From: a virus | Taxonomy: Duplodnaviria; Heunggongvirae; Uroviricota; Caudoviricetes | Virus record (IMG/VR): IMGVR_UViG_2603880150_000003 | Length of the DNA: 21,318 bases | Strand: one strand, 5' to 3' | Shown here: positions 223 to 19,987 of the stretch, one piece after another | How positions within the stretch are numbered: the stretch's first letter is position 1 | How the letters are laid out: every line of letters begins with the position of its first letter | Made by a program: the position numbers and the translations under genes | Notes under the pieces: generated by a model | Seen by the model: only the letters and a program-made list of their open reading frames with translations | The model's database searches: none | Told to the model about the DNA's origin: nothing

Positions 223-264
223 CTCTCTTTAAGCCATCTTAAATGACTCTGAGGTGTCTGTTAA

Positions 265-732: not shown

Positions 733-769
733 GATACACCCCCTGTCTGGAAATAAGGGGGCAAGAACA
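265..769 (+). mobile_element. Truncated IS2-like element, right end retained (terminal inverted repeat about 741-769)
   Basis: Sequence after the OrfB stop (..ccctgtctggaaataagggggcaagaaca) resembles the IS2 right terminal repeat (GTCTGGAAATATAGGGGCAAATCCA from memory) and ends in CA directly before the stop codon of the regulator gene at 774. Confidence 0.5.
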
Positions 770-773
770 ATGA

Positions 774-1526: not shown

Positions 1527-2101
1527 CCAACTTAACTGAAACCAGGATGAAGTATATGCATATAAAGTTCACTTTGCCAAACTTCAGTATAAAAAACCAC
1601 ATAAAAAATAGGGTGTGATAAAAAACACCGTAACAATAAAGCAAAGGATTATAAATTCCGTTACAGTTACAAATGATACTCAAGAAACAATTCCTTAGGA
1701 AAAACTTATTTACAGCCAATAAGTAAGACACTTATATGATATCAAGTTTTCATAAAACATAACTAGGCTAAATAGCTGCGCCTAATACCGCTACACTTTT
1801 GCCAGCCCATATTTGCCTCCGGGTATTGACCCCTTCTCTACGCAACTTCAGTTCCCACCACCAACTTTGCGGCAGCTTTGTAGGATCAATGTCTAAAAGA
1901 ATAATGGTGACCGATAAGAAAACGACTGAATAACTGCAAATTTTCGCTCAAAACCTTCCTGTCAGATCCATAGCGAATCAAGTGCTGAATGTCACAGTAT
2001 CAAACAGAAAACAGTGACGATCTAACTCTTCAAGAATATTCTACGATTGTTCTGTTTAGGAAAAGCAAGGCGGGAAGTCGGGAGATAAGTCATTGATAAA
2101 G

Positions 2102-2163
2102 TGGCGGAGAGAGGGGGATTTGAACCCCCGGTAGAGTTGCCCCTACTCCGGTTTTCGAGACCG
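2102..2163 (-). other. Orphan 62-nt 3' fragment of tRNA-Ser(CGA) (serU-type), likely att-site remnant
   Basis: Reverse complement CGGTCTCGAAAACCGGAGTAGGGGCAACTCTACCGGGGGTTCAAATCCCCCTCTCTCCGCCA matches the 3' 62 nt of E. coli tRNA-Ser(CGA) including the CCA end; the match stops abruptly inside the anticodon stem, so no complete tRNA is present. Confidence 0.8.
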
Positions 2164-2906
2164 ATGATACAGAGTCGAAAAATCAAAGAGTTAAAAATTT
2201 TTCTTGGAATAAATGTCTTAAAATCGTACACGAAAAATCAATGAATTACATAACATTAAAGAAGAATATTCCAAGCCTTCTTGATGCTACCACCTGTTTT
2301 CAGGTGTCATTCAGACGTGATTTGCCCCAGATTGGGAAAGCACGCTTTTTTCTCAGCTATCGTCCTCTTATTTTGCCGTTACATTTCTTTTTGCACTCTA
2401 ATGATTAATTTACAATAATAATATCGGTAATTATTGAGTAATAATAAATTGATTATTGCAAATGTAATTTAATTCCATCTTCGCGTTATATTCCAATCTT
2501 TAATCTCCGCATGGAACAAGTTGCATGCGTGACTATATTAAGACAACTTATAACCACCAAAACATTTGCTTTGCAAGCAAAAACAGTGACCATTGACTCT
2601 AAGAAAATTCCGATCTATTGTTAGGGTCATCAAAGTTACTTAACAGTATTCCGAAATGAAAATACAAAGCAAGCTAATTGTCTTATTAAACATTATCATT
2701 GCATTTATATTATTTGAGCTTTTAGCTCAAAAATTTGGTTTGAGTACATTATTTTAAAGCAAGATAAACAATATCGGGCACTCTAGTTTTTATAATTAAC
2801 AATTAAACGTCCATAAAATGTTATTTACTTTTCTTCGCTATTGTCATATCTTAATATAGTGGCTTACGCCACTCTACTTTCATCACATTTTGTACGTTTA
2901 TGTACT

Positions 2907-2939
2907 CGCCATGAAGCTCTTTCATGGCGATTTTTTATT
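2907..2939 (+). terminator. Candidate intrinsic terminator (9-bp stem cgccatgaa/ttcatggcg, loop gctct, then attttttatt)
   Basis: Perfect inverted repeat followed by a T-run on the + strand, inside AT-rich non-coding DNA between the tRNA fragment and tfa. Confidence 0.3.
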
Positions 2940-3022
2940 CTTAATCCAAGAACATACTCCTTACCTATAGCAAAATCACTTTTTGAACAAAAGAATAACG
3001 TATTTAGGTAATCATTACGAAT

Positions 3023-3604
3023 TTACCCTATAGGTGCTACTGGCCATTCAATATCCGGTGCAGTTGTTGTATTAACACGGTTCAGCAACACCCGATACTT
3101 CTTCCAGGCTTCCAGCAACGAGGTTTCTTCCTCCGTTGCAATTTCCAGATCTGCAGCATCCTGAAGCGGCGCAATATGCTCACTGGCTACCTGCATCAGG
3201 CTGTTTTTTGTTTCTTCCGCCTCCCGGATCCGGAACAGTTTTTCTGCTTCTGCATCTTTCACCCAGGCTGTGCCGTTCCACTTCTGATATTCCCCTCCCG
3301 GCGACAACCAGGTAACATTTTCCGGTAACGGACCGAGTTCAGAAATAAATAACGCGTCGCCGGAAGCCACGTCATAAACCGTTTTACCCCGATGGTCTTC
3401 AACGAGATGCCACGATGCCTCATCACTGTTGAAAACAGCCACAAAGCCAGCAGGAATATCTGGTGGTGCAATATCGGTACTGTTTGCTGGCAGACCTGTA
3501 TGAGGCGGAATATATGCGTCACCTTCACCAATAAATTCATTAGTTCCGGCCAGCAGATTATAAATTTTTATGGTCCGTGGTTGTTCACTCATTCTGAATG
3601 CCAT
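3023..3604 (-). CDS. tfa: Tail fiber assembly protein Tfa (lambda Tfa-like)
   Basis: 193-aa translation [51 protein letters not shown].. is near-identical to lambda Tfa as recalled; start overlaps the stf stop by 1 nt. Confidence 0.9.
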
Positions 3605-6600
3605 TATGCAAGCCTCACAATATAGTTAAATGCGATGTTTTTGACGGTGTTTTCCGCGTTACCCGCAGCGTTAACGGTGATGGTATGTCCATGTGAGCCA
3701 ATCGCAACGGAGTGCGTATGAGCACCAATACCGACAGTATGTGCATGTGCGCCTGCGCTTGCAGCAGTGCCGGACAGCGAGTGGGTATGAGCACCATCTG
3801 ATGATGTCTTCCCTGCATTACGAGTCTGGCCACTACCGCTTGTTGTGCTCATAATCCCCGCGCTTAGATTTGAAATCGCAGTATAACCATTAGGAAAAAT
3901 GCTCGTGTTCGTGCCACCAAATGCACCGGAACTCTTGTGTTGGTGCGCACCGGCACTATTTGCTGTCCCGCTAATACTATGGGTATGTGCACCAGTGTTA
4001 TTCGTGGATTTGGTTCCGTAATCAAACGACGATGTGGTTTTCGTCCCCAAATCCGTACTGGATGCGCTGGCGCTGTGGGTGTGCGATTTAATGCCGTCCT
4101 GTTCCTGAGACAATACGGCACGACCACTGGCGGGCTTGCCCTTAATCGTCCAGCCACGCATATCAGGGATCACGCCTGACGGATAAGCAACTGCAAGTTT
4201 CGGGTATGCAGATTTGTCAAAAGTCTGCCCCTGCATCAGGGCATAGCCAGACGGAACGGTATCTGATGGCCACGGGATTGGTGCGCCGACTGGATAAAAC
4301 TCTGCAGGAGGATGAGCCGAGGTGTAAAGCTGCGCCCACGGCGACCAGTTTGCGTCGATCGTATCCCGTCGTGAACGAATAAATGCCGGAGCATGAGCAC
4401 CGCTTGTACCACTCCAGCCGATGAGTAACTCACCTTCGCCAACGGCTGTCATCCCTTTCAGGTGAATGATATTTCCATACGCTGTTGGATATCCGTTGTT
4501 ATACACCTCGTATAACTCAAGACCTGTTGCCCCCTGCGTATTGTCTGTCAGCGCGGTTACCCGACCTTTTGAAGCCAGATTAACTGATGATACTGCTGTT
4601 CCACCTGACGGTAATGCCCCAATCTCTGATGCCGTTGGCTTATTTCTGGAGTTATAGTCCCTTCGCCAGCCAGGTGAATAATCTGTTCCGTGATTAATAT
4701 AGGTAAACTGGGCGTTAGTTGTTCCACCACCAGTGGAGGTGGTCGGTGTGGTAATGCGGATCGTCATCGCTGACTTTATCCCCATTACTTCAATGACAGC
4801 TCCGGCGAGATGAATATTACCGCAGCCAGTATCAGTAATGATTTTATTATTGCCATAAGACCAGGAACCCTTGCACATCCAGTATGGATGGTTAAATGCT
4901 CCCTGAGAATCCAGCCACTCGATAAACTGTGCAGTCGTCCAGTTTCCTGTTGTTGTGCTTACTGACCCACCGAAGGCACGGCAGGCACCAATATTTTTCG
5001 TAAAGGTGTCTTTGCCAGGGATATCCGCACCGTTCTGATCTTTCTGCAGACGTTTCTCAGCATTGTCATTGGCTGCTTTTACTGCCTTTGGCGTTGCCGC
5101 CAGCGTTTCAGACGTGCTGTTGGTCGCGCTGCTTAGCTGGATTATCCCTTTCTGTGCTGTCGTTGCATCCTGTGCGGTGTATTTCCCGTTAGCCAGGTCA
5201 TACGCGGCCTTAACGGCTTTTGGTGTTGCCGCCAGTGACTCGGAAGTGCTGTTAGTCGCACTACTGAGCTGTACTATCCCCTTTTTCGTCGTGCTCGCAT
5301 CCTCAAGCGCCACGGCGGATGCAATATCCTCTGCCCGTTTTGCCGCTGTCTCAGCGCGCGTTGCTGCAGATTCCGCCGTACTTTTGCTCTGAGCTGCTGC
5401 CGTCGCACTACCAGCAGCCTCTGTCGCCTTCGTGGATGCCGTCGTGGCGCTGCCCTTCGCTGCTGACGCCTGTCTGGTCGCCTCATCTTTTGAAGCAGAC
5501 GCCGATGATGCCGATGACGCCGCCGAACTGGCGGACGATGCCGCTGCCGTTTTTGAGGATTCTGCACGGGTTTCCGAGGCTTTCGCGTTCGTTTCGGATG
5601 TCATCGCTGCGGATGCAGACCTCGCTGCTGCGCTGGCCTGTTCAGCGGCTTCGCCAGCCTTCGTTGTGGCTGTTGAAGCGGATGATGCGGCGCTTTCGGC
5701 CGATTTTCCGGCTGCGGTGGCACTGACTGAGGCCTGCCCGGCACTTGTTGACGCGGCACTGGCAGACGACGCAGCCGCTGTTTTTGAGCCTGCCGCAGCT
5801 GAGGCGCTCTGTCCCGCTGCCGTCTCAGAAGACCTGGCGTTCGTCTCGGACGTTTTTGCCGCCTTCGCGGAATTTCCTGCCGCCGTTGCCGAGGAAGCGG
5901 CACTACTGGCGCTTGATGATGCGTTCGTTTCTGATGATTTTGCCGCTTCTTTTGAGGCCGCCGCATCCCGGGCCGAGGTCGCAGCTTCTGATGCCTTCGT
6001 GGTCGCGGTGGATGCAGATGTGGCTGCTGATTGTTGTGACGCTGAAGCATTCGTTTCTGACGTTTTCGCCGCACCGGCACTGGTGGCCGCCGCGCTTTTT
6101 GAGGACTCTGCAGCGGCAGCACTTTTTGATGCTTCAGTGGCCTTTGTTGATGCCGTTCCTGCGCTGGAAGACGCTGACTGAGCCGACGACGCGGCCTGTC
6201 CGGCTGACGTGCTGGCTGCGCGTGCTGAGTCCGCAGCATCAGCCGCATGGGTTGCCGCCTCACGGGCTGATGTGCTGGCATCACTGGCTGACTTCTTCGC
6301 GGCTGCCGTGTTCTGTGCCACCGCGGACGCGTTACGCGCCACCTCTTCCACCATCAGTTCAAAACGGCGCAGTGCCTCAGGACGGGCATCATCCTCCGTC
6401 ATGGCACCGAGAAAATCATTCAGCGTACCGGGTTGAGAATCTTCATACACGGTGATGGTCCCGGCATGTGACGGCGGGAATCCTTCCACCAACAGAATAA
6501 CGCTGTACTGACCGTACTCCACATCCATGCTGTAACGCCCGGCTTCATCCGGATTCTCTGAGCCCACCGTGTTCACCACCACCGTGGTGCTGTTACGTCT

Positions 6601-6684
6601 GGCTTTCAGCTGAATGGTGCAGTTCTGTACCGGTTTTCCTGTGCCGTCTTTCAGGACTCCTGAAATCTTTACTGCCATATTCAC
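3604..6684 (-). CDS. stf: Side tail fiber protein Stf (StfR/lambda Stf-like), 1026 aa, with long Ala/Ser/Thr-rich region
   Basis: N-terminus [64 protein letters not shown].. matches Rac/lambda side tail fibers; contains tandem [27 protein letters not shown] motifs and a C-terminal His-rich GAHTHSxSGTA repeat region. Confidence 0.9.
5085..5290 (-). repeat. Tandem ~120-bp repeat inside stf encoding the duplicated SATNSTSE(S/T)[11 protein letters not shown] motif
   Basis: Two near-identical DNA blocks (about 5085-5165 and 5205-5285) are visible on the + strand; both translate on the - strand to the conserved tail-fiber motif. Confidence 0.6.
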
Positions 6685-6689
6685 CCCAC

Positions 6690-6715
6690 AAAAAAGCCCA
6701 CCGGTTCCGGCGGGC
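6690..6715 (-). terminator. Candidate intrinsic terminator between the lom remnant and stf
   Basis: Hairpin gcccacc..ggcgggc followed on the - strand by UUUUUU (the + strand shows aaaaaa at 6690-6695 before the stem). Confidence 0.4.
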
Positions 6716-6742
6716 TGTCATAACACTGTGTTACCTGGCTAA

Positions 6743-8353
6743 TCAGAATTTATAACCGACCCCAACGATGAATCCGTCAGTACGCCAGTCGCCACTGCCG
6801 GAGCCTTCATAAGCAATATCAACAACGACGGACGCTGCCGGATTAATCTGTATACCTGCACTCCACGCCACTGAGGTATGCCGCATTGCACTTTCGTCCC
6901 TGGCGGTGGTCGTCTCTTTCATATAGCCGGATGCATCATCACTCGGCTGACCAACAGCCTCCACGAATGCCGATTTGCCAACGGTGTTCACACTGCGAAC
7001 GTAAAAATAATAATCATAGCCCGGCCTGATATTGATACTGGCGGCTATCCAGTACAGCCCCGTGCCAAGGTAGCGGGCTGTGGTTTCAACCTGCCTGATA
7101 TCGGTAATCCGCTTTTCCGAGAACCAGAACTCAAACTGTACCGTCGGGTCATAAACGGCAAGATGCGGCGTGGCGGTTATCTGAAAATAGCCCGGCGTCA
7201 GCTCAATCCTCGACGGTGCTGCCGGTGCGGCAATCCGGAACGATACCGACGCCGGATCTCCCTGCTGCCCCCACGCATTTACCGCCCGGACTGTCAGCCT
7301 GTAGTTCCCCAGCGCCAGTTGCGTGAAGCGGTATGTGGTTTCCGTCGTCCGGGCCGTGCTGACCAGCCGCTCACTGCCGTCGTCCGCTGTTACGGTCAGA
7401 CGGAGCAGGAAGCTCACGCCCTTCACCACCTTCGGTGTGTCCCAGCGCGCCAGCACCTGATATTCCCCGCTGTCTGCAGTGACTTCTGCGGTCAGGTGCT
7501 GCACCGCTGGCGGCGTGACACCGTTCACCGTGCCACTCTGTTCGCCGTCAAAGTGCGCCCCGTTATCCACGATGGCCTCTTTTTCCGGCACATGCTGCAC
7601 GGCGGTGATGGCATACGTACCGTCATCGTTCTCACGGATACTCACACAGCGGAACAGGCGCTGGCGCAGCGTCGGCAGCTTCAGCCCCCACACGCTGTAT
7701 TCGGCAACGCCGTCAGGAACACGGCTCACTTTCACCTTAAGTCCGTCGGTGACGGACTGAACCTCCACGCTGACCGGATTACCACTTCCGTCAACCAGGC
7801 TTATCAGCGTGGTACCGGAGGATGGCAGCGTGATTTCACGGTCGAGCGTCAGCGTCCGGGTCTGGCTGTTCACCGCCAGCACGCGACCACCGGTGCTGAT
7901 ACCGGCATAGTCATCATCGCAGATTTCAATGACATCGCCCGGTACATGGCGAAGCCCTTCAGCACCCACGCTGAAATCCACGGTCTGCGTCTCCAGCAGT
8001 TCCGTTTTAATCAGCCACAGCCCGGCGCGGTGTGCCTGCCCCCGGCTGGTACAGCCAAAGGCATCCATCTTCGTGACATTACGACCGTAACGGGCAATGG
8101 CCTGCGTATCTTCAACAAGCTCTGTCGCCGTCTCCCAGCCGTTGTCCGGGTCAATCCAGTTCACCTCAACGGCATTATGGCGGTCCTTCAGGGCGCTGAA
8201 GCTGTAGCGGAACGGCGCGCCATCATCCGGCATCACCACATTACTGCGGTTATAGGTCCACACCTTATCCGACGGTCGGTCCTGCACGAACGTCAGCGTC
8301 TGCCCGTTCCATACCGGCATACAGCGCATCGCCGAGCAGAAATCACTGAGCAC
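6743..8353 (-). pseudogene. Tail tip/host-specificity protein J, central fragment, fused in frame to the C-terminal ~59 codons of lom
   Basis: Translation from [19 protein letters not shown].. through ..[20 protein letters not shown] matches the central part of lambda gpJ; the last 59 aa ([59 protein letters not shown]) match the Lom C-terminus with the Ail/Lom/PagC beta-barrel terminal signature. The J N-terminus and C-terminal receptor-binding domain are absent. Confidence 0.75.
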
Positions 8354-8888
8354 ATCCCACGCCTTGCGCTGTGTGGTCAGGTATCAGTTCATCCAGCGCG
8401 GCTGCTTTGTTCATGGCTTTGATGATATCCCGTTTCAGGAAATCAACATGTCGGTTTTCCAGTTCCGGAAAACGCCGCTGCACCGACAGGGGGATCCCGT
8501 CGAGAATACTGGCAATTTCACCTGCGATCCGCGACAGCACGAAAGTACAGAATGCGGTTTCCACCACTTCAGCGGAGTCTCTGGCATTTTTCAGCTCCTG
8601 TGCGTCGGCCTGCGCACGCGTAAGTCGATGGCGTTCGTACTCAATAGTCCCTGGCTGGAGATCTGTCTCGCTGGCCTGCCGCAGTTCTTCAACTTCCCGG
8701 CGCAGCTTTTCGTTCTCAATTTCAGCATCCCTTTCGGCATACCATCTTATAACGGCGGCAGAGTCATAAAGCACCTCATTACCCTTGCCACCGCCTCGCA
8801 GAACGGGCATTCCCTGTTCCTGCCAGTTCTGAATGGTACGGATACTCGCACCGAAAATGTCAGCCAGCTGCTTTTTGTTGACTTCCAT
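8343..8888 (-). pseudogene. nu1: Terminase small subunit Nu1 (NohD-like), C-terminally truncated at a deletion junction
   Basis: MEVNKKQLADIFGASIRTIQNWQEQGMPVLRGGGKGNEVLYD.. matches lambda Nu1 up to ..[10 protein letters not shown], then diverges ([11 protein letters not shown]) where the sequence enters the J reading frame. Confidence 0.8.
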
Positions 8889-9065
8889 TGTTCATTCCAC
8901 GGACAAAAACAGAGAAAGGAAACGACAGAGGCCAAAAAGCTCGCTTTCAGCACCTGTCGCTTCCTTTCTTTTCAGAGGGTATTTTAAATAAAAACATTAA
9001 GTTATGACGAAGAAGAACGGAAACGCCTTAAACCGGAAAATTTTCATAAATAGCGAAAACCCGCG

Positions 9066-9077
9066 AGGTCGCCGCCC
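9066..9077 (-). other. cosN cohesive-end site (GGGCGGCGACCT) with adjacent cosB-like region toward nu1
   Basis: Reverse complement of 9001-9090 reproduces the remembered lambda left end GGGCGGCGACCTCGCGGGTTTTCGCTATTTATGAAAATTTTCCGGTTTAAGGCG.. preceded by ..CCGACAGGTTACG, the lambda right end. Confidence 0.8.
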
Positions 9078-9276
9078 CGTAACCTGTCGGATCGCCGGAA
9101 AGGACCCGCAAAATGATAATAATTATCATCTGCATGTCACAACGTGCATCTACGCCATCAAACCACGTCAAATAATCAATTATGACGCAGGTATCATATT
9201 AATTGATCTGCATCAACTTAACGTAAAAACAACTTCAGACAATACAAATCAGCGACACTGAATACGGGACAACCTC

Positions 9277-9471
9277 ATGTCAACGAAGAACAGAACCCGC
9301 AGAACAACAACCCGCAACATCCGCTTTCCTAACCAAATGATTGAACAAATTAACATCGCTCTTGAGCAAAAAGGGTCCGGGAATTTCTCAGCCTGGGTCA
9401 TTGAAGCCTGCCGTCGGAGACTAACGTCAGAAAAGAGAGCATATACATCAATCCAGAGTGATGATGAATAA
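9277..9471 (+). CDS. Small prophage protein, YlcI-like (DUF3950-type), 64 aa
   Basis: ORF MSTKNRTRRTTTRNIRFPNQMIEQINIALEQKGSGNFSAWVIEACRRRLTSEKRAYTSIQSDDE; position between cos and bor corresponds to ylcI in DLP12-like prophages. Family assignment is from memory. Confidence 0.5.
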   Translation: MSTKNRTRRTTTRNIRFPNQMIEQINIALEQKGSGNFSAWVIEACRRRLTSEKRAYTSIQSDDE

Positions 9472-9708
9472 ACATCCCGGTTTCTTCCACCATCGCACCG
9501 GAAAAGCGACTATGAGGGTAACCCTGCGTCTGTCAGCACAGTAAAACCCGGTGTGCATCGTTTTTGATTATTCCCGCACACTCACGCAGAAGGAATTCCC
9601 CGTCGGGCTACGGTCATGGTTAATGCGGGAATACGGCGACGATACAGCGCAGCTAAAAGGGTAATGGACAGAAAGAGCGGTTTATTTCATTCCACAGGAT
9701 TCTGAGTG

Positions 9709-9718
9709 CCCCCCCCCC
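9709..9718. repeat. Homopolymeric C10 tract (G10 on the - strand) about 115 bp upstream of bor
   Basis: Directly counted: positions 9709-9718 are ten consecutive C residues, followed by tcctcc. Confidence 0.9.
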
Positions 9719-9834
9719 TCCTCCAATAGGCTGAGCATCCACCTATATAGTTTTAATTTTCATCAATCCATTTAACTATCGTTTAATTGTTGTCACATAG
9801 GATTCTGCCGTTTTTAACAATGCAGGATAATAAG

Positions 9835-10128
9835 ATGAAAAAAATGTTGTTTTCTGCCGCTCTGGCAATGCTTATTACAGGATGTGCTCAACAGACGTTT
9901 ACTGTTGGAAACAAACCGACAGCAGTAACACCAAAGGAAACCATCACCCATCATTTCTTCGTTTCGGGAATTGGACAGGAGAAAACTGTTGATGCAGCCA
10001 AAATTTGTGGCGGCGCAGAAAATGTTGTTAAAACAGAAACCCAGCAAACATTCGTAAATGGATTTCTCGGTTTTATTACTTTAGGCATTTATACTCCGCT
10101 GGAAGCGCGTGTGTATTGCTCACAATAA
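9835..10128 (+). CDS. bor: Bor lipoprotein (serum-resistance moron)
   Basis: MKKMLFSAALAMLITGCAQQTFTVGNKPTAVTPKETITHHFFVSGIGQEKTVDAAKICGGAENVVKTETQQTFVNGFLGFITLGIYTPLEARVYCSQ matches lambda Bor; lipobox LITGC; antisense to the lysis genes as in lambda. Confidence 0.85.
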   Translation: MKKMLFSAALAMLITGCAQQTFTVGNKPTAVTPKETITHHFFVSGIGQEKTVDAAKICGGAENVVKTETQQTFVNGFLGFITLGIYTPLEARVYCSQ

Positions 10129-10159
10129 TTGCATGAGTTGCCCATAGATATGGGCAGCT

Positions 10160-10621
10160 CTATCTGCACTGCTCATTAATATACTTCTGGGTTCCTTCCA
10201 GTTGTTTTTGCATAGTAATCAGCCTCTCTCTGAGGGTGAAATAATCCCGTTCAGCGGTGTCTGCCAGTCGGGGGGAGGCTGCATTATCCACGCCGGAGGC
10301 GGTGGTGGCTTCACGCACTGACTGACAGACTGCTTTGATGTGCAACCGACGACGACCAGCGGCAACATCATCACGCAGAGCATCATTTTCAGCTTTCGCA
10401 TCAGCTAACTCCTTCGTGTATTTTGCATCGAGCGCAGCAACATCACGCTGACGCATCTGCATGTCAGTAATTGCCGCGTTCGCCAGCTTCAGTTCTCTGG
10501 CATTTTTGTCGCGCTGGGCTTTGTAGGTAATGGCGTTATCACGGTAATGATTAACAGCCCATGACAGGCCGACGATGATGCAGATAACCAGAGCGGAGAT
10601 AATCGCGGTTACTCTGTTCAT
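10160..10621 (-). CDS. Rz: Spanin inner-membrane subunit Rz
   Basis: [85 protein letters not shown].. matches lambda Rz; ATGA overlap with the R stop. The listed ORF starts 4 codons earlier. Confidence 0.85.
10219..10401 (-). CDS. Rz1: Spanin outer-membrane lipoprotein Rz1, embedded in Rz in the +1 frame
   Basis: [60 protein letters not shown]: lipobox VVGC and proline-rich segment as in lambda Rz1. Confidence 0.75.
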
Positions 10622-11115
10622 TGCTGACCCCACAAACAGATTTCACGCTCAATCTCACGACGAGTCATGAGACCTTTCCATTGCTTACCGCCAGCATATG
10701 TCCAGCGACGTAGCTGATCACATGCGCCTTTAATATCACCCTGGTTTATTTTGCGAAGAAGCGTCGATGTTCTGAAATTGCCAGCACCCACGTTGTAGAC
10801 GAACGAGTAAAGAGCGCCGCGCGTTGTTTCCGGTATATCGACTTTGATGTACGGGTTAATTTGTCTGGCGACAGTGGCAAGGTCTTTATTCAGGAGGGCT
10901 TTGCACTCTGCTTCGGTATACGTTTTACCGGGAATGATGTCTTTTCCTGTATGCCCGTGACATACAGTCCATACACCAACTATGTCTTTGTAAGGATTAT
11001 GTCTCACACCTTCCAGACCATCGTTACCACTTGGGCCAGTGATTAATACAGATGCTATAGCAATAGCCCCGCCACCAATAGCAGCAGCAACAGCTTTTCG
11101 TAATGATGGAGGCAT
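10618..11115 (-). CDS. R: SAR endolysin (phage 21 R / RrrD-type lysozyme)
   Basis: 165 aa with N-terminal signal-anchor-release-like hydrophobic segment ([20 protein letters not shown]) and lysozyme-like core; unlike lambda R transglycosylase; follows the holin with overlapping stop/start. Confidence 0.85.
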
Positions 11116-11330
11116 TATCCACCTCTCGCAGCCTTGCGCTTATCTTCTTTAATCTTGAAATAAAGGTTTGTCAGGTACGTCAGCAGGCCAAATACCAGGC
11201 TACCCAGCACTCCAATTGCCGCCCACTGTGAGGGCGTGACTTTATCTAGCAGCTGTAAAAACCAGTACCCGGCACTACCTGCTGAGGTGCCATAGGCGAC
11301 ACCCGTTGTTAACTTATCCATGGATTTCAT
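11115..11330 (-). CDS. S: Holin, phage 21 S-type pinholin (EssD-like)
   Basis: 71 aa [71 protein letters not shown]; two TM segments and a charged C-terminus, matching S21. Confidence 0.85.
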
Positions 11331-11453
11331 AACCCCACCTCGCAGACAAAGCGGGTGTAAATTGAGGGAATACTACGAAACGTAACAGACTCGGAGTCAG
11401 TGAATAACTCAGGTATTGGGTTATCAGCTAATATCGAGACTCAAAAAATGGAA

Positions 11454-11475
11454 AAACCCGCTCGACGGCGGGTTT
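11454..11475 (-). terminator. Candidate hairpin/terminator upstream of S on the late strand
   Basis: Inverted repeat aaacccgc/gcgggttt with 6-nt loop; on the - strand the stem is followed by a short U-run. Weak. Confidence 0.3.
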
Positions 11476-11902
11476 AAGCTGTGTGACGAAGTAACCACTC
11501 TTAACAGCATAACCAATTTTTTACGTACGTAAACCACTAAATGATATTTGCGAGAATGCTACCGAGTATTGAAAACACCACTACAAATACATAAGAAAAT
11601 CTCAACAAATAACCAACAAATAATTTCCAGTGTTATTTTTAGCCGGTTTAAATTGAACCTTCAAATTATAGAGCACTTATAAATAACAGCCGTTAATATA
11701 AATTGGCTAACAGATTTATTTTTATTCAGCCAAGAGCCATGAATAGGATTCGATAGAAAAAAGTTCAGATAAAAATAGAGATCTACTTCACAAATCAAAC
11801 GAGAAACCAAAACTTACATCTTGAAATAATCACATTGATTAGATGAATATTTATCGCGCAGTGACATCATTTTTTAATAATAGTTCAAAAAAAGGGCTCA
11901 CG

Positions 11903-13000
11903 ATGAAAAAATTAACAGTGGCAATTTCTGCTGTAGCTGCATCAGTACTGATGGCGATGTCTGCTCAGGCAGCTGAAATTTATAATAAAGACAGTAACAA
12001 GCTGGATCTGTACGGGAAAGTTAATGCTAAGCACTACTTCTCCTCTAATGATGCAGATGATGGTGATACTACTTATGCCCGTCTTGGCTTCAAAGGTGAA
12101 ACCCAAATCAACGATCAACTGACTGGTTTCGGTCAGTGGGAATATGAATTCAAAGGCAACCGCGCTGAATCTCAAGGCTCCTCCAAAGACAAAACCCGTC
12201 TTGCATTTGCAGGCCTGAAATTCGGTGACTACGGCTCCATCGATTACGGCCGTAACTACGGTGTAGCATACGACATCGGCGCGTGGACTGACGTCCTGCC
12301 AGAATTCGGTGGTGACACTTGGACTCAAACCGACGTGTTCATGACTCAACGTGCAACTGGTGTTGCAACCTATCGTAACAACGACTTCTTTGGTCTGGTT
12401 GATGGTCTGAACTTTGCTGCTCAGTACCAAGGCAAAAACGATCGTAGCGATTTCGATAACTACACTGAAGGTAACGGTGATGGCTTCGGTTTCTCTGCTA
12501 CCTATGAATACGAAGGATTCGGTATCGGTGCAACTTATGCGAAATCTGATCGTACCGACACTCAAGTTAATGCAGGGAAAATTCTTCCTGAAGTATTTGC
12601 TTCCGGTAAAAATGCAGAAGTTTGGGCCGCAGGTCTGAAATATGACGCTAACAACATTTACCTGGCCACTACCTATTCTGAAACCCAGAATATGACTGTA
12701 TTTGCTGATCACTTCGTTGCTAATAAAGCCCAAAACTTCGAAGCTGTTGCACAATATCAGTTCGATTTCGGTCTGCGTCCGTCCGTTGCTTACCTGCAAT
12801 CTAAAGGTAAGGATCTTGGAGTATGGGGCGATCAGGACTTAGTCAAATATGTTGATGTAGGTGCAACCTATTACTTCAACAAAAATATGTCTACTTTCGT
12901 TGATTACAAAATCAACCTGCTTGACAAAAATGACTTCACTAAAGCACTCAGTGTAAGCACTGATGACATCGTTGCTGTAGGTCTGGTTTACCAGTTCTAA
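11903..13000 (+). CDS. nmpC: Outer membrane porin NmpC/OmpD/Lc (OmpC family), apparently intact
   Basis: [23 protein letters not shown] signal peptide, then [23 protein letters not shown].. and C-terminal ..VAVGLVYQF, the general-porin signature; SD aaaggg upstream. The listed ORF starts 20 codons upstream but 11903 fits the signal peptide. Convergent with Q, as for nmpC in DLP12. Confidence 0.9.
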
Positions 13001-13016
13001 TCTGATTACGAAAAAG

Positions 13017-13050
13017 ATATGTTGCGGGAGGCTTTGCCTCCCCAACATAT
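13017..13050 (-). terminator. Strong hairpin just after the nmpC stop; on the - strand followed by aucuuuuucg (candidate late-strand terminator, possibly tR')
   Basis: About 15-bp stem (atatgttgcgggaggc / gcctccccaacatat, one bulge) with ttt loop; rc of 13008-13016 gives a U-run after the stem on the - strand. Confidence 0.4.
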
Positions 13051-13137
13051 AAGTGGCTCCCTCAAGCCACTTCCTTTAGGAGCACAACCTTGCTTCTAAC
13101 TATATAAACCTTCTGTTATATATTACCCTTTATTTTT

Positions 13138-13162
13138 GGGGGCGTTGCAACGCCCCATTTTT
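13138..13162 (+). terminator. Intrinsic terminator for nmpC
   Basis: Perfect palindrome gggggcgttgcaacgcccc followed by atttttaataattttt on the + strand. Confidence 0.55.
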
Positions 13163-13189
13163 AATAATTTTTAGTAAACAACTGGCATA

Positions 13190-13573
13190 TTAATTAGAGT
13201 TATTAACAACGATATCCATCTCTAACCGGATATCTAATGCCATTAACATCCCTTCAATTATGCCCTCAGCCTTCTGTAACCTTTTCCCGATATAACCATC
13301 AGAGCAGCAATGCTTACCTGCCAGTGACATGAATGTCATACCGACTACATAATAATCTACTAATAAATCGTGCAAATCGCTGTTGTTCTTTTTCAGACGG
13401 GCCATGCACCCGCAAATAATCATCGCGTCATCGTCACAACATTGCGGGCGAGATTTTACTTTTGAAGTAATTAATCCCTTAAAACCGGCGGCAATGGACG
13501 ACCAGGTCACATCTTCATGATTATTAGCCGCCCACGCTCCCCAACGCTCAAGAACCATCTGAATATCACGCAT
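13190..13573 (-). CDS. Late-gene antiterminator Q (QuuD / phage-82-type Q-like), 127 aa
   Basis: [62 protein letters not shown].. with Cys-rich motif; sits between rusA and the lysis genes; SD GGAG precedes the MRDIQ start (the listed ORF begins at an upstream TTG). Confidence 0.8.
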
Positions 13574-13658
13574 CAACTTACTCCACAAAAATCAGACCAG
13601 AACGCCAATTACAAGCAAAAATCAACAAAACAGTATTAGTTGATTGTTATCTCTGACT

Positions 13659-13796
13659 TCATACTCCTGCTCCTGTCAGGGTTTTGGCGTAATTCTTCAG
13701 TATTCGGTAATCGGTCAAAACAGAACCAGGAAAACGATATAAGCGCAGGCGCATCCAGCGGTGGCGAAGACGTTCTGCCACATAAAACTCAAACAT
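13659..13796 (-). CDS. Small ORF (45 aa), YlcG-like by position between rusA and Q
   Basis: ATG overlaps the rusA stop (TGATG); translation [45 protein letters not shown]. Below the ORF-track length cutoff; identity inferred from synteny only. Confidence 0.4.
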   Translation of the reverse strand: MFEFYVAERLRHRWMRLRLYRFPGSVLTDYRILKNYAKTLTGAGV

Positions 13797-14158
13797 CATT
13801 CATTCCCCATTTCGGTGATGGTCAGTTCCAGCCTCCCACCTTTGGTAACAGGCATCTTCACAACGCGGTAATCAACGACCTGAGCATCATCCAGCCAGAA
13901 ACCTGCTTTAGTGAGTGCGTCAAAAGCGGCTTTTTGCAGATTATCCAGGTCACGGCGACGGCGATCCGGCATGTGGCACTCAATGCGGATTTTCACAGGG
14001 ATAGCCAGGCCGATATCCAGCATTGCGTTTTTAATGATTCTGGCGACGTTATCGCGGTATGCCTGCCCCTCTGCGCTGACGTGCGTGCGCCCGCGATTAT
14101 GGCGGTAATAGCGATTATTGCTCGGAGGCCAGGGTAATGTGATGCTGTAGGTATTCAC
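13796..14158 (-). CDS. rusA: Holliday junction resolvase RusA
   Basis: [120 protein letters not shown] matches RusA; GTG start. Confidence 0.9.
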
Positions 14159-14364
14159 GCCTTAATAATCCCCTCTTTCAGCCACATAACCTGTGTTTTC
14201 GCCATACCTTCCAGCGCGCATTCTTTTGCATATGCAGCATCGACTTGCTTGGCATGCCCTTTACCGGCAATCTTCTGTATGCGCTAAACCTAGATAGAAT
14301 CCACTCTGTGCACATTGAAGCCCGCTCTATGCTTCCTTTCAGGTATTGAAGGGATTGAGATGGG
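14156..14364 (-). pseudogene. ybcO-like (DUF1364) gene remnant, frameshifted/internally deleted
   Basis: The last ~40 codons (..[29 protein letters not shown]) match the YbcO C-terminus and its stop overlaps the rusA start, but upstream the frame is broken by stops and the space between ninX and rusA (~207 bp) is too short for a full gene. Confidence 0.5.
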
Positions 14365-14712
14365 CTAAGCATTATTGGCCTCCTGCATCAGGAGAAAGAC
14401 AATCATGGCGGCGCGGAGAGGTCTGGTATCAAATATTGGGCTTACGCCTTTTGCATCCACACACCATTCAGTTAACTGGTCTAAGATAGAAATCCTGTAT
14501 TTCTCAATAATCGGCCATGAAGCGCTCGGATCATTGCAGTAATCAGGCAAATGATTTAATGGCTCAAAAGTTGTATCAGCATTTCCGTAATACCATTTGT
14601 TGGTGTTATTCCCTGATGTTTCCGGTTTACTTGCCCAAAGGCCTTTAAAAATTATGTCTCCTACCATTCTGTTAATTTCAAAATCACTTAACTGTGAATA
14701 ATCCATTGTCAT
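14365..14712 (-). CDS. nin-region protein, NinX/DUF2591-like (family name from memory)
   Basis: [34 protein letters not shown]..; ATGA overlap with the ninE stop at 14709-14712 supports this start rather than the upstream one in the ORF track. Confidence 0.6.
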
Positions 14713-14885
14713 TTCCTCGCACGATATCTTAGCCACCGGATATCCCACAGGTGAGCTGTGTAATTGAAGGTTTTTACGTCAGATTCTTTTGGGATTGGCT
14801 TGCGTTTATTTCTGGAGCGTTTCGTTGGAAGGTATTTGCAGTTTTCGCAGATGATGTCGGTGAAACTTCGTCGCTGTCGCCTCAT
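14709..14885 (-). CDS. ninE: NinE
   Basis: 58 aa [58 protein letters not shown] resembles lambda/DLP12 NinE; ATGA overlap with the upstream Dam fragment stop. Confidence 0.75.
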
Positions 14886-15229
14886 GCCGCCCTCCTGACG
14901 CCCTGCCCGATCGCCATCAATGCCGCTTTGGATACGGTAGTAAACATCCGTCGAGGACTGATGAACAGTCGCCAAATCAGCAGCATGGAGCCTTTGCTGT
15001 TTTCCTTCTTCTCCAACCCTGTCGATGGTTCGATAAAATTAATCCGTCCATCAGTGATAATGCGAACTTCGTCGACACTCTCCAGAGCCTTGCTGAACCA
15101 TCCGACTGACATATCCTCTGGCACAAGCATAACTACCGTCTGTCGCTGTTGTATGCACTGCTCAGCGGCTTTTTCCACCCACGGCCTGATATTGCTGTAC
15201 GGTGGGTTATTCCAGATTGCACCGTGGCT
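14882..15229 (-). pseudogene. Phage Dam-type N6-adenine DNA methyltransferase, 3' fragment (contains the NPPY motif)
   Basis: Minus-strand translation from 15229: [71 protein letters not shown]..; catalytic NPPY motif present, no N-terminal domain; an in-frame stop lies immediately upstream (15230-15232). Confidence 0.7.
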
Positions 15230-15230
15230 T

Positions 15231-15542
15231 TACGAGTATTGCCGGAAGCGAGGCCTGTATCCGGATGCGGAGTCTTATCCGTGGAAATCAAACGCGCACT
15301 ACTGGCTGGTTACCAACCTGTATCAGAACATGCGGGCCAATGCGCTTACTGATGCGGAATTACGGCGCAAGGCTGCCGATGAACTGACCTGTATGACAGC
15401 GCGAATTAACCGTGGTGAGACGATACCTGAACCAGTAAAACAACTTCCTGTTATGGGCGGTAGACCTCTAAATCGTGCACAGGCTCTGGCGAAGATCGCA
15501 GAAATTAAAGCTAAGTTCGGACTGAAAGGAGCAAGTGTATGA
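15231..15542 (+). pseudogene. P: Replication protein P, C-terminal ~104 codons only
   Basis: YEYCRKRGLYPDAESYPWKSNAHYWLVTNLYQNMRANALTDAELRRKAADELTCMTARINRGETIPEPVKQLPVMGGRPLNRAQALAKIAEIKAKFGLKGASV matches the lambda P C-terminus; the preceding 160 codons of the listed ORF are antisense to ninE/dam and unrelated to P. Confidence 0.8.
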
Positions 15543-15829
15543 CGGGCAAAGAGGCAATTATTCATTACCTGGGGACGCATAATAGCTTCTGTGCGCCGGA
15601 CGTTGCCGCGCTAACAGGCGCAACAGTAACCAGCATAAATCAGGCCGCGGCTAAAATGGCACGGGCAGGTCTTCTGGTTATCGAAGGTAAGGTCTGGCGA
15701 ACGGTGTATTACCGGTTTGCTACCAGGGAAGAACGGGAAGGAAAGATGAGCACGAACCTGATTTTTAAGGAGTGTCGCCAGAGTGCCGCGATGAAACGGG
15801 TATTGGCGGTATATAGAGTTAAAAGATGA
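15539..15829 (+). CDS. ren: Ren
   Basis: MTGKEAIIHYLGTHNSFCAPDVAALTGATVTSINQAAAKMARAGLLVIEGKVWRTVYYRFATREEREGKMSTNLIFKECRQSAAMKRVLAVYRVKR matches lambda Ren; ATGA overlap with the P stop. Confidence 0.85.
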   Translation: MTGKEAIIHYLGTHNSFCAPDVAALTGATVTSINQAAAKMARAGLLVIEGKVWRTVYYRFATREEREGKMSTNLIFKECRQSAAMKRVLAVYRVKR

Positions 15830-15902
15830 CCATCTATATTACTGAGCTAATAACAGGCCTGCTGGTAATCGCAGGCCTTTTTATTTGGGGGAGAGGGAAG
15901 TC

Positions 15903-16343
15903 ATGAAAAAACTAACCTTTGAAATTCGATCTCCAGCACATCAGCAAAACGCTATTCACGCAGTACAGCAAATCCTTCCAGACCCAACCAAACCAATCGT
16001 AGTAACCATTCAGGAACGCAACCGTAGCTTAGACCAAAACAGGAAGCTATGGGCCTGCTTAGGTGACGTCTCTCGTCAGGTTGAATGGCATGGTCGCTGG
16101 CTGGATGCAGAAAGCTGGAAGTGTGTGTTTACCGCAGCATTAAAGCAGCAGGATGTTGTTCCTAACCTTGCCGGGAATGGCTTTGTGGTAATAGGCCAGT
16201 CAACCAGCAGGATGCGTGTAGGCGAATTTGCGGAGCTATTAGAGCTTATACAGGCATTCGGTACAGAGCGTGGCGTTAAGTGGTCAGACGAAGCGAGACT
16301 GGCTCTGGAGTGGAAAGCGAGATGGGGAGATCGGGCTGCATGA
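15903..16343 (+). CDS. ninB: NinB (Orf-family recombination mediator)
   Basis: MKKLTFEIRSPAHQQNAIHAVQQILPDPTKPIVVTIQERNRSLDQNRKLWACLGDVSRQVEWHGRWLDAESWKCVFTAALKQQD.. matches lambda NinB; SD gagggaag upstream. Confidence 0.9.
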   Translation: MKKLTFEIRSPAHQQNAIHAVQQILPDPTKPIVVTIQERNRSLDQNRKLWACLGDVSRQVEWHGRWLDAESWKCVFTAALKQQDVVPNLAGNGFVVIGQSTSRMRVGEFAELLELIQAFGTERGVKWSDEARLALEWKARWGDRAA

Positions 16344-16708
16344 CTATCAAATCAAATACGCCAGCACACGACAAGGACTGCTGGCAAACGCCGCTTTGGC
16401 TTTTTGATGCACTGGATATTGAGTTTGGATTCTGGCTGGATTCGGCAGCGAGCGACAAAAATGCTCTGTGTGCTCACTGGCTAACTGAGGCCGACGACGC
16501 GCTCAATTCTGAGTGGGTACACAAAGCATCTCCTGTTGAGTTAAGAACGAGTATTGAGATGGCACATAGCCTTGCTCAAATTGGAGTCAGGTTTGTGCCA
16601 ATACCAGTAGAAACAGACGAAGAATTTCATACGTTAGCCGCATCCCTTTCACAAAAGCTGGAAATGATGGTGGCGAAAGCAGAAGCAGATGAGAGAGACC
16701 AGGTATGA
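16340..16708 (+). pseudogene. Dam-type methyltransferase 5' fragment (62 codons, DCWQTP motif) fused in frame to an early-left small ORF (possibly lambda orf63-like)
   Basis: MTIKSNTPAHDKDCWQTPLWLFDALDIEFGFWLDSAASDKNALCAHWLTEADDALNSEWVH is the N-terminal half expected upstream of the NPPY fragment at 14882-15229; after His62 the sequence (KASPVELRTSIEMAHSLAQIG..) is unrelated to Dam. ATGA overlap with the ninB stop. Confidence 0.65.
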
Positions 16709-17865: not shown

Positions 17866-18056
17866 GATCGGTTTTGTAAAAGATAACGCTTGTGAAAATG
17901 CTGAATTTCGCGTCGTCTTCACAGAGATGCCAGAGTCTGTAGTGTCAGATGATGACCGTACTCAAACATCGGGTTGAGTATTATCTTACTGTTTCTTTAC
18001 ATAAACATTGCTGATACCGTTTAGCTGAAACGACATACATTGCAAGGAGTTTATAA

Positions 18057-18338
18057 ATGAGTATCAATGAGTTAGAGTCTGAGCAAAAAGATTGGGCGTT
18101 ATCAATGTTGTGCAGATCCGGTGTCTTGTCTCCATGCAGACATCACGAAGGTGTTTATGTAGATGAAGGTATAGATATAGAGTCGGCATACAAATATTCC
18201 ATGAAGGTTTATAAGTCTAATGAAGACAAATCCCCATTCTGCAATGTGCGAGAAATGACTGATACCGTGCAAAATTATTATCACGAGTACGGTGGAAACG
18301 ATACTTGCCCTCTCTGTACAAAACATATAGATGATTAA
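18057..18338 (+). CDS. ea8.5: Ea8.5
   Basis: 93-aa ORF MSINELESEQKDWALSMLCRSGVLSPCRHHEGVYVDEG.. between ea22 and xis, same size and position as lambda ea8.5. Confidence 0.75.
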   Translation: MSINELESEQKDWALSMLCRSGVLSPCRHHEGVYVDEGIDIESAYKYSMKVYKSNEDKSPFCNVREMTDTVQNYYHEYGGNDTCPLCTKHIDD

Positions 18339-18413
18339 ACCCAATATTACATAACAATCCTCGCACTCGCGGGGATTTATTTTATCTGAACTCGCTACGG
18401 CGGGTTTTGTTTT

Positions 18414-18566
18414 ATGGAGATGATAAATGCACTTCCGAGTCACAGGAGAATGGAATGGAGAGCCATTCAACAGAGTTATCGAAGCGGAGAACATCAACGA
18501 CTGCTACGACCACTGGATGATATGGGCGCAGATAGCACATGCAGACGTAACCAATATTCGAATTGA
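18414..18566 (+). CDS. Small ORF (50 aa) between ea8.5 and xis
   Basis: ATG at 18414, stop at 18564-18566; translation MEMINALPSHRRMEWRAIQQSYRSGEHQRLLRPLDDMGADSTCRRNQYSN. Lambda has an unnamed small ORF at this position, but coding status here is uncertain. Confidence 0.3.
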   Translation: MEMINALPSHRRMEWRAIQQSYRSGEHQRLLRPLDDMGADSTCRRNQYSN

Positions 18567-18585
18567 AGAACTGAAAGAACACCAA

Positions 18586-18606
18586 GCCGCCTGATGGCGG
18601 TTTTTT
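18586..18606 (+). terminator. Candidate intrinsic terminator upstream of xis
   Basis: Short GC stem (ccgcc/ggcgg, loop tgat) followed by tttttt. Confidence 0.4.
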
Positions 18607-18633
18607 CTTGCGTGTAATTGCGGAGACTTTGCG

Positions 18634-18852
18634 ATGTACTTGACACTTCAGGAGTGGAACGCACGCCAGCGACGCCCAAGAAGCCTTGAAACAGTTCGTC
18701 GATGGGTACGCGAGTGCAGGATATTCCCTCCTCCGGTTAAGGATGGAAGAGAGTATCTGTTCCACGAATCAGCGGTAAAGGTTGACTTAAATCGACCAGT
18801 AACAGGTAGCCTTTTGAAGAGGATCAGAAATGGGAAGAAGGCGAAGTCATGA
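18634..18852 (+). CDS. xis: Excisionase Xis
   Basis: MYLTLQEWNARQRRPRSLETVRRWVRECRIFPPPVKDGREYLFHESAVKVDLNRPVTGSLLKRIRNGKKAKS matches lambda Xis (72 aa); overlaps the int start. Confidence 0.9.
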   Translation: MYLTLQEWNARQRRPRSLETVRRWVRECRIFPPPVKDGREYLFHESAVKVDLNRPVTGSLLKRIRNGKKAKS

Positions 18853-19900
18853 GCGCCGGGATTTACCCCCTAACCTTTATATAAGAAACAATGGATATTA
18901 CTGCTACAGGGACCCAAGGACGGGTAAAGAGTTTGGATTAGGCCGAGACAGGCGAATCGCAATCACTGAAGCTATACAGGCCAACATTGAGTTATTTTCA
19001 GGACACAAACACAAGCCTCTGACAGCGAGAATCAACAGTGATAATTCCGTTACGTTACATTCATGGCTTGATCGCTACGAAAAAATCCTGGCCAGCAGAG
19101 GAATCAAGCAGAAGACACTCATAAATTACATGAGCAAAATTAAAGCAATAAGGAGGGGTCTGCCTGATGCTCCACTTGAAGACATCACCACAAAAGAAAT
19201 TGCGGCAATGCTCAATGGATACATAGACGAGGGCAAGGCGGCATCAGCCAAGTTAATCAGATCAACACTGAGCGATGCATTCCGAGAGGCTATAGCTGAA
19301 GGCCATATAACAACAAACCCGGTCGCAGCCACTCGCGCTGCAAAATCAGAGGTAAGGAGATCAAGACTTACGGCTGACGAATACCTGAAAATTTATCAAG
19401 CAGCAGAATCATCACCATGTTGGCTTAGACTTGCAATGGAACTGGCTGTTGTTACCGGGCAGCGAGTTGGTGATTTATGCGAAATGAAGTGGTCTGATAT
19501 CGTAGATGGATATCTTTATGTCGAGCAAAGCAAAACAGGCGTAAAAATTGCCATCCCAACAACATTGCATGTTGATGCTCTCGGGATATCAATGAAGGAA
19601 ACACTTGATAAATGCAAAAAGATTCTTGGCGGAGAAACCATAATTGCATCTACTCGTCGTGAACCGCTTTCATCCGGCACAGTATCAAGGTATTTTATGC
19701 GCGCACGAAAAGCATCAGGTCTCTCCTTCGAAGGGGATCCGCCAACCTTTCACGAGTTGCGCAGTTTGTCTGCAAGACTCTATGAGAAGCAGATAAGCGA
19801 TAAATTTGCTCAACATCTTCTCGGGCATAAGTCGGACACCATGGCATCACAGTATCGTGATGACAGAGGCAGGGAGTGGGACAAAATTGAAATCAAATAA
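18830..19900 (+). CDS. int: Integrase Int (lambda-type tyrosine recombinase)
   Basis: 356 aa MGRRRSHERRDLPPNLYIRNNGYYCYRDPRTGKEFGLGRDRRIAITEAIQANIELFSGHKHKPLTARINSDNSVTLHSWLDRYEKILASRGIKQKTL.. near-identical to lambda Int; 3' end points at the att core. Confidence 0.95.
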   Translation: MGRRRSHERRDLPPNLYIRNNGYYCYRDPRTGKEFGLGRDRRIAITEAIQANIELFSGHKHKPLTARINSDNSVTLHSWLDRYEKILASRGIKQKTLINYMSKIKAIRRGLPDAPLEDITTKEIAAMLNGYIDEGKAASAKLIRSTLSDAFREAIAEGHITTNPVAATRAAKSEVRRSRLTADEYLKIYQAAESSPCWLRLAMELAVVTGQRVGDLCEMKWSDIVDGYLYVEQSKTGVKIAIPTTLHVDALGISMKETLDKCKKILGGETIIASTRREPLSSGTVSRYFMRARKASGLSFEGDPPTFHELRSLSARLYEKQISDKFAQHLLGHKSDTMASQYRDDRGREWDKIEIK

Positions 19901-19954
19901 TGATTTTATTTTGACTGATAGTGACCTGTTCGTTGCAACAAATTGATAAGCAAT

Positions 19955-19987
19955 GCTTTTTTATAATGCCAACTTAGTATAAAAAAG
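19955..19987. other. Prophage-host att junction (int-proximal); 15-bp lambda core GCTTTTTTATACTAA on the - strand at 19973-19987
   Basis: ..gttgcaacaaattgataagcaatgcttttttataatgccaacttagtataaaaaagc matches the lambda P arm and core as recalled; the following aggc.. matches the bacterial arm (CTGCTTTTTTATACTAA.. in reverse complement). Confidence 0.8.

Follow-up and report, generated by a model that had tools for sequence, protein, structure and literature searches.

A deletion-inversion that splits dam in a cryptic lambda-like prophage of Escherichia coli

Cryptic lambdoid prophages such as DLP12, Rac and Qin lie beside their own integrase at a phage attachment (att) site, with the immunity, replication and morphogenesis modules deleted. 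The DNA presented here, IMG/VR virus record IMGVR_UViG_2603880150_000003 (21,318 nucleotides, nt; the whole stretch is called the window below), shares these traits: it is a decayed, cryptic lambda-like prophage at att-lambda (ybhB-ybhC) of Escherichia coli, and its dam gene, for a phage Dam-type methyltransferase, lies in two pieces on opposite strands. As in such prophages, a nin-Q-porin-lysis cassette is retained, its genes carry DLP12 names in the Prokaryotic Genome Annotation Pipeline (PGAP), namely quuD, essD, rrrD, rzpD and nohD, and the broken genes are annotated as pseudogenes. Unlike DLP12, Rac and Qin, the window sits at att-lambda with what we take to be a lambda-type Int, and its early-region lesion is a combined deletion and inversion rather than a plain deletion or the insertion of an insertion sequence (IS).

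Closer relatives allow the lesion to be read base by base. The HS30-1 prophage (NZ_CP029492) occupies the same ybhC site and encodes Int, Xis, NinB, NinE, NinX and QuuD proteins identical to those of E. coli F3_13_1_3 (NZ_CP074754), a strain that matches the window at 3184985-3206302 with one mismatch and carries the prophage between ybhB and ybhC. The nin-Q-lysis block of HS30-1 and of ev243 (NC_049955) is 95-96% identical to that of the window. Unlike the window, however, both have dam (528 bp) and P intact, the pL-pR early region complete and the genes from P to Q co-directional; in HS30-1, an apparently complete prophage, P-ren-ninB-dam-ninE-ninX-rusA-Q all lie on one strand. FG92-1 (NZ_CP142677, locus L015) has the same ybhC site and a closely related nin region; together with FORC 064 (NZ_CP022664) it has lost about the same central region as the window, exo through the 5' part of P. 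In these two genomes, though, the loss is a simple one-strand deletion joining orf60a' to P', with other endpoints, 606 nt of P kept and dam intact.

Two further systems are also comparable. Products of microhomology-mediated break-induced replication (MMBIR) and fork stalling and template switching (FoSTeS) (PMC2621351) resemble the window in combining a deletion with an inverted segment, in two strand-switching junctions and in one reused breakpoint, which would be expected of the site of an initiating break. The window, with 0-2 nt of homology at its junctions, is a fixed natural scar with one blunt junction and no copy-number gain. Cells carrying a trapped lambda are rescued by inactivation of ori-lambda with O, P or pR, and the passages of that report consulted here list point mutations, insertions and deletions in O, P or host genes among the survivors of replicative killing (RK- mutants), a deletion-inversion finding no mention there (PMC3640518).

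The split dam gene and the rearranged early region

The features of the rearranged region are given below in window coordinates.

14882-15229, minus strand: dam 3' fragment, codons 61-175 and stop, with SHGAIWNNPPY; ev243 dam nt 181-528, 3 mismatches
15225-16519, plus strand: inverted block (block C), holding a P 3' fragment, ren, a tR2-like terminator, ninB and dam codons 1-60
15226-15232: junction J1, the dam break (minus-strand piece) head to head with the P break; strict microhomology TT (2 nt)
15228-15542, plus strand: P 3' fragment, C-terminal 104 codons and stop, pseudogene; PF06992 positions 95-162 of 162, aligned to ev243 P
15539-15829, plus strand: ren, intact open reading frame (ORF) of 96 amino acids (aa); 'protein ren' in PGAP
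15855-15878, plus strand: intrinsic terminator-like hairpin between ren and ninB, an 8-bp stem with 6 GC pairs, then a T-run
15903-16343, plus strand: ninB, intact; PF05772, E-value = 2e-54; protein WP_000736903.1
16340-16519, plus strand: dam 5' fragment, codons 1-60, with DCWQTP; 180 of 180 nt identical to ev243 dam nt 1-180
16340-16708, plus strand: chimeric ORF Dam(1-60)::Orf63(2-63), 122 codons, in frame across J2
16519-16520: junction J2, the dam break (GGGTA) joined in frame to orf63 codon 2 (CACAAAGC)
16520-16708, plus strand: lambda orf63 homologue (DUF1382), codons 2-63 and stop; PF07131 positions 2-60 of 60, E-value = 1e-29

The intact dam of ev243, HS30-1 and FG92-1 is a 528-bp gene of 175 codons between ninB and ninE, and the full-length genes run colinearly across both window pieces. 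When rejoined, the 175-aa Dam matches the Phage Dam family PF05869 at positions 1-167 of 169 (E-value = 8e-64), whereas the plus-strand ORF alone covers positions 1-60 only. Positions 1-60 and 61-169 of the model thus stand on opposite strands of the window, 1.3 kb apart, and no single polypeptide carries both the DCWQTP-type motif and (D/N)PPY. The place of dam between ninB and ninE, co-directional with Q, is lost too: the 3' piece is still by ninE and the 5' piece by ninB, with its ATG overlapping the ninB stop codon. The break falls between Val60 and Ser61, the two dam ends coincide within ±1 nt, and the halves point away from each other, head to head, at 15226.

The initial annotation had taken these pieces for one split gene and not for two natural genes, a view that the intact 175-codon homologues bear out, and it had correctly put the remainder of dam, from NPPY onward, on the minus strand. 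For the plus-strand piece the strand and the DCWQTP motif were right, but the proposed 62 codons to 16522 become 60 codons ending at 16519 once ev243 is aligned. Both pieces do end at one point, as had been proposed, yet at Val60/Ser61 and not at a shared His codon: the CAC at 16520-16522 is codon 2 of orf63 (ATG CAC AAA GCA TCT), while intact dam reads GTA AGC CAC, with both AGC and CAC in the minus-strand piece.

PGAP names the 3' fragment 'phage N-6-adenine-methyltransferase, incomplete, missing N-terminus' and the 5' fragment 'missing C-terminus', with the same end at 16519; the P 3' fragment is 'replication protein P, incomplete, missing N-terminus'. The two dam pieces and P' are accordingly already 'incomplete' pseudogenes in the PGAP annotation of both complete genomes that carry the rearrangement (AH21 and F3_13_1_3). 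The dam 3' fragment is a pseudogene because it has neither a start codon nor a promoter. As judged from its frames, the split dam is a pseudogene derived from a member of the Dam family, not a functional member. An assembly artefact, or two dam pieces that are naturally separate genes, would be the trivial explanation, and nothing beyond the odd arrangement speaks for either. Separate genes are contradicted by the colinear 175-codon homologues and by a Pfam model split at 60/61, and an artefact by the identity of the junctions between the two complete genomes and, across three archives, 8 more independent assemblies; we regard both as scarcely credible. A side observation concerns window position 15003 in the dam 3' pseudogene: where ev243 encodes Gly, the A found here gives Glu. 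The other base is found in 5 of 5 other loci of the lineage aligned at single-base level (L006-L009, L011), so that the A is private to the window, and the sole mismatch with F3_13_1_3 may be this same position.

Block C gives one 1,295-column alignment at 99.7% identity (3 substitutions) with ev243 38117-39410 and HS30-1 (L005 16001-17294). It is contiguous in both and opposite in orientation to the flanking nin-Q block, and in alignment its identity to that contiguous stretch is far beyond chance. The ancestral map can be written as four blocks: A, from int to orf63; B, from orf60a to the 5' part of P; C, the P 3' part, ren, ninB and dam codons 1-60; and D, dam codons 61-175, then ninE through to Q. 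Today the blocks run A, inverted C, D, and B is gone. The gene order of HS30-1 and the 99.7% identity of block C together make C the inverted part and leave D native relative to int.

Alignment, PGAP and Pfam agree with the initial annotation that a P 3' fragment, ren and ninB lie on the plus strand between the dam pieces while ninE, rusA and Q are on the minus strand, and the co-directional order P-ren-ninB-dam-ninE...Q of HS30-1 upholds its statement that the block is inverted relative to Q. Its two breakpoints, in dam and in P, account for J1, which does join dam to P, but not for J2, which joins dam to orf63. A simple two-breakpoint inversion therefore has to be given up: the reciprocal junction of P 5' with dam 5' does not exist, and the 5' half of P is gone along with about 8.7 kb. 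Nor are the pieces of the operon convergent, as had been thought, since the truncated genes at 15226 diverge.

Within the inverted block, ren differs from both ev243 and HS30-1 by a single base, at 15815, and the NinB protein WP_000736903.1 is common to AH21, F3_13_1_3, HS30-1 and FG92-1. The hairpin between ren and ninB would, from its position, be the counterpart of lambda tR2, moved along with the block. A 263-codon open frame also occupies window 14751-15542 on the plus strand, running antisense across ninE and the dam 3' piece and then into the P' frame. It is called as a gene with a PF06992 match in several assemblies (L008, L009, L011, L013), and is probably an annotation artefact.

On the other side of the block, the orf63 homologue matches lambda Orf63 in PDB entry 8DSB (E-value = 2e-33), the 63-residue protein of the exo-xis region (PMC10869804). 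The stretch from 16520 corresponds to ev243 29390 downward at 97-98.5% identity and is the start of the retained exo-xis region. The chimera replaces exactly the ATG of orf63 and retains the overlap of the ninB stop with the dam start; NCBI names the 122-aa product 'DUF1382 family protein'. What is missing between orf63 and the P break is block B, ev243 29391-38119 (8,729 bp), with orf60a, exo, bet, gam, kil, ral, sieB, N, rexAB, cI, cro, cII, O with ori and the 5' part of P. Searches with the ev243 and HS30-1 versions of block B by blastn and tblastx gave no match anywhere in the window. As the alignments read, the early region is the product of a three-breakpoint deletion (~8.7 kb) together with a 1,295-bp inversion.

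Junctions and the number of events

Of the three breakpoints, a directly follows the orf63 ATG, b lies within P, and c separates codons 60 and 61 of dam. Breakpoint c is used at both junctions, and both J1 and J2 join opposite strands. With a slash marking the break, J1 reads CACCGTGGC-TTT-ACGAGTATT in the window, and its parents are CACCGTGGCTT/ACCC (dam, antisense) and GATATGG/TTTACGAG (P). The dam ends have a 1-nt overlap, meet exactly or are 1 nt short, according to the side to which the TT is allotted. With a 1-nt slip the parents show an imperfect 7/8 match, TGGCTTAC versus TGGTTTAC, and a match of 7/8 or better occurs among random site pairs, the null for J1, at a frequency of ~0.008. 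J2 reads GAGTGGGTA/CACAAAGC, with 0 nt of microhomology, which is at background, and no inserted bases. A patchy 'GTA..CAC' likeness at J2 (dam GTAAGCCAC, orf63 GTATGCAC) was considered and rejected: neither register predicts the observed GTACAC, and J2 is therefore treated as blunt.

No IS copy, IS end, target-site duplication or filler DNA was found at J1 or J2, where the parental sequences abut directly. A search of the ancestral layout (ev243 29200-39600) found no inverted repeats at the breakpoints. Nor does any inverted repeat of the present layout have one arm at 15226 and the other at 16519; the closest pair is 15 nt long, 80% complementary and offset by 45 nt. The lack of IS elements at the junctions and of inverted repeats rules out an IS-mediated event and a site-specific switch. 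The latter would have block C as a programmed, reversible segment by which a recombinase turns dam on and off, and two facts might recommend it: flipping C back restores an intact dam ORF, and intact int and xis lie 2 kb away. Besides the missing repeats around block C, the J1 and J2 sequences bear no resemblance to the att core, the flipped-back state (the A-C junction) has 0 matches in 5,426 complete E. coli genomes, and 10 of 10 informative loci show one orientation. Such a switch has next to no probability.

We consider it likely, with a probability of about 0.7, that the deletion-inversion of this cryptic prophage was one complex illegitimate event, fixed by the loss of host-killing functions. 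Breakpoint c takes part in each of the two new joins, each of which changes strand, and no intermediate was found in the 5,426 complete genomes (see below); a single event is therefore favoured. A single DNA break or collapsed replication fork at the dam site would have come first, and P and then orf63 would have been reached through two inverted template switches or end-joins, in the manner of MMBIR/FoSTeS. In the MMBIR model the chromosome is viable after an inverted template switch only if another inverted switch comes after it (PMC2621351). The window shows the complex product described for MMBIR/FoSTeS, a deletion plus an inversion with at least 2 novel junctions. Against the ~2-15 nt of microhomology expected for MMBIR, J1 has 2 nt strictly or 7/8 with the slip (p ~0.008), and J2 has 0 nt, at random level.

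The main alternative is a pair of sequential events: a two-breakpoint inversion followed by a deletion, or the deletion of B followed by an inversion of exactly C. In the first order, the inversion could have run from dam to P (block C), or from dam to orf63 across B and C with later deletion of the inverted B. Inversions and deletions are each common in prophage decay, simple deletions of the same region arose independently in FG92-1 and FORC 064, the prophage itself bears at least two other simple deletions, and, the ancestor being unsampled, intermediates could simply be missing. A second event would nevertheless have to end within ±1 nt of the first junction, a coincidence of ~3 in 10,000 over a target of ~10 kb if the site is no hotspot. 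Three junctions expected of intermediates were constructed, namely the reciprocal of J1, the reciprocal of J2 and the exact A-C deletion, and gave 0, 0 and 0 exact matches in the 5,426 complete E. coli genomes, while J1 and J2 always occur together. The third query returned two hits, FG92-1 and FORC 064, which carry a different deletion. In FG92-1 (L015 9106-9863) a truncated orf60a (DUF1317) is joined to a 606-nt P 3' fragment, and FORC 064 has the same two-piece pattern; from its endpoints this deletion is an independent event and not an intermediate, and it amounts to convergent loss of the core for immunity, replication and recombination. On balance, two sequential events seem an unlikely origin, if the most serious of the competing ones.

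Several points weigh against the single event. We infer its one-step origin and did not observe it, and the absence of intermediates is weak evidence because the rearranged type is itself rare (2/5,426). A J2 free of microhomology fits blunt end-joining as well as or better than primed synthesis, the 7/8 match at J1 requires a 1-nt slip, and its p of ~0.008 is uncorrected for the choice of statistic. To our knowledge E. coli has no classical non-homologous end joining, and three-break rejoining would be unusual there. Finally, the predicted silence of the retained ORFs (see below) has a consensus promoter scan as its single source.

Under the single-event reading, fixation would have followed from what the event removed: pL, pR, N, kil, cI/cro, ori-lambda with O and a functional P, all of them host-killing functions. 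When ori-lambda fires from a trapped prophage the host dies, and cells that survive replicative killing have lesions in O, P or ori (PMC3640518). The independent deletion of FG92-1 and FORC 064 argues for recurrent selection of such disarming lesions.

Prophage setting and distribution

The remaining landmarks of the prophage are these.

13190-13588, minus strand: Q
14709-14885, minus strand: ninE, intact and in native orientation, the first gene downstream of the dam 3' fragment; PF05322 positions 1-58 of 58, E-value = 3e-42; NinE family protein in PGAP
18634-18852: xis, which together with int abuts ybhC
18830-19900, plus strand: int, lambda-type, adjoining ybhC
~19960-19985: att core
20035 onward: ybhC, bacterial gene flanking int

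The int sequence we take to be lambda-type, and the att core is likewise our own identification. With int on the plus strand the lambda rightward operon is expected on the minus strand, where Q, rusA, ninX and ninE are indeed all found. An int and an att site next to a bacterial gene, together with a missing early region and a missing terminase-to-J stretch, mark the element as a cryptic lambdoid prophage. On the 3' side of orf63 follow an unnamed ORF at the orf61 position (with no Pfam family), a TraR/DksA-like gene, ea22, ea8.5, xis and int, and the stretch from orf63 to int is the distal pL operon in native orientation.

Other lesions of the window lie apart from dam. Near ~8380-8383, the loss of ev243 697-16498 (~15.8 kb of head and tail genes) has joined nohD (Nu1) to an internal fragment of J, and at ~6870-6923 J lacks its C-terminal end and lom its N-terminal end (ev243 17960-19557); relative to ev243 both deletions are of the simple type. 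Just upstream of rusA, window 14155-14372 (minus strand) holds a truncated DUF1364 pseudogene according to PGAP (~14155-14244); the truncation is likewise annotated in HS30-1 and FG92-1 and is therefore older than the deletion-inversion. The attR-side end (1-3023) carries IS/transposase remnants at 1-732, an AraC-family regulator at 774-1526 (minus strand) and, at 1731-3023 (~1.3 kb), no ORF of at least 70 aa. An Rfam scan of the window yielded nothing bearing on the dam rearrangement; its sole match above the gathering score was IS009 (RF02111, 227 bits) at 3063-3261 (minus strand), inside a tail-fibre-assembly gene (3023-3604).

J1 and J2 are both present in 2 complete genomes, AH21 (Alberta) and F3_13_1_3 (Nebraska, bovine source), out of the 5,426 complete E. 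coli genomes, and also together in 8 of 8 further independent contigs reaching J1 (NCBI, ENA, JGI). The two junctions always co-occur, with one orientation of block C in all 10 informative loci. The exact 122-aa chimera was found on 93 contigs (NCBI, ENA, JGI, Logan) and forms a one-member cluster at 90%, and between the window and the loci carrying the rearrangement there are 0-3 substitutions per 11 kb. By these comparisons the rearrangement is the marker of one near-clonal E. coli lineage and not an artefact.

Some carriers have elements that the window does not. In AH21 (L001 9614-12120) two IS3-family elements separate the ea22/ea8.5 region from xis, and the draft genome L010 (GCA_012264305.1, 8537-10849) has an IS66 element between xis and int. 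A metagenome scaffold (L011 9541-12369, ERZ28664329) shows both junctions and then, from the att core, ygcP-ygcQ instead of ybhC. Of its 13 differences from the window, int holds a cluster of 12 (window 18934-19978), and the homology stops at the att core. On account of this clustering and of where homology ends, the scaffold was not accepted as evidence of a second chromosomal site next to ygcP; it is probably a chimera across int with another lambda-int prophage, or else reflects a secondary att site. A lambda-type int beside ygcP does exist in the complete genome of Z1323CEC0013 (NZ_CP148427).

Present state and meaning of the scar

Judged by their truncated frames, dam and P are dead and are to be treated as pseudogenes, while ren, ninB and the dam(1-60)::orf63(2-63) ORF are all intact as reading frames. 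A consensus promoter scan predicted no sigma-70-like promoter on the plus strand between 14300 and 17200, and the retained ren, ninB and chimera are probably silent. The ninE-Q stretch and the lysis genes would be deprived of pR.

A bolder proposal can be made, to which we give very little credence: the scar might have been left, as a natural fossil that can be dated, by one MMBIR-like double template switch brought about by in-situ firing of ori-lambda in a non-excisable prophage, and the ninB-coupled Dam(1-60)::Orf63(2-63) chimera might be expressed and kept as a new gene serving the host. A host-serving role is entertained because Orf63 is a dimeric developmental regulator of the exo-xis region.

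For annotation, gene callers may list a 122-aa 'DUF1382 family protein' and a 263-aa 'P-like' protein at this locus, both of which are chimeras of the rearrangement. The sequences of J1 and J2 serve as a marker specific to the lineage, known to date from 93 contigs. The case is one of ordinary prophage decay, already flagged as pseudogenes in RefSeq, which would not surprise a specialist and opens no long-standing question. It is nonetheless a clean, base-resolved natural example in E. coli of a three-breakpoint deletion-inversion that removes exactly the host-lethal core of a lambdoid prophage, and the deletion of the same core at the same att site in FG92-1 points to recurrent selection for disarming the prophages that reside there.

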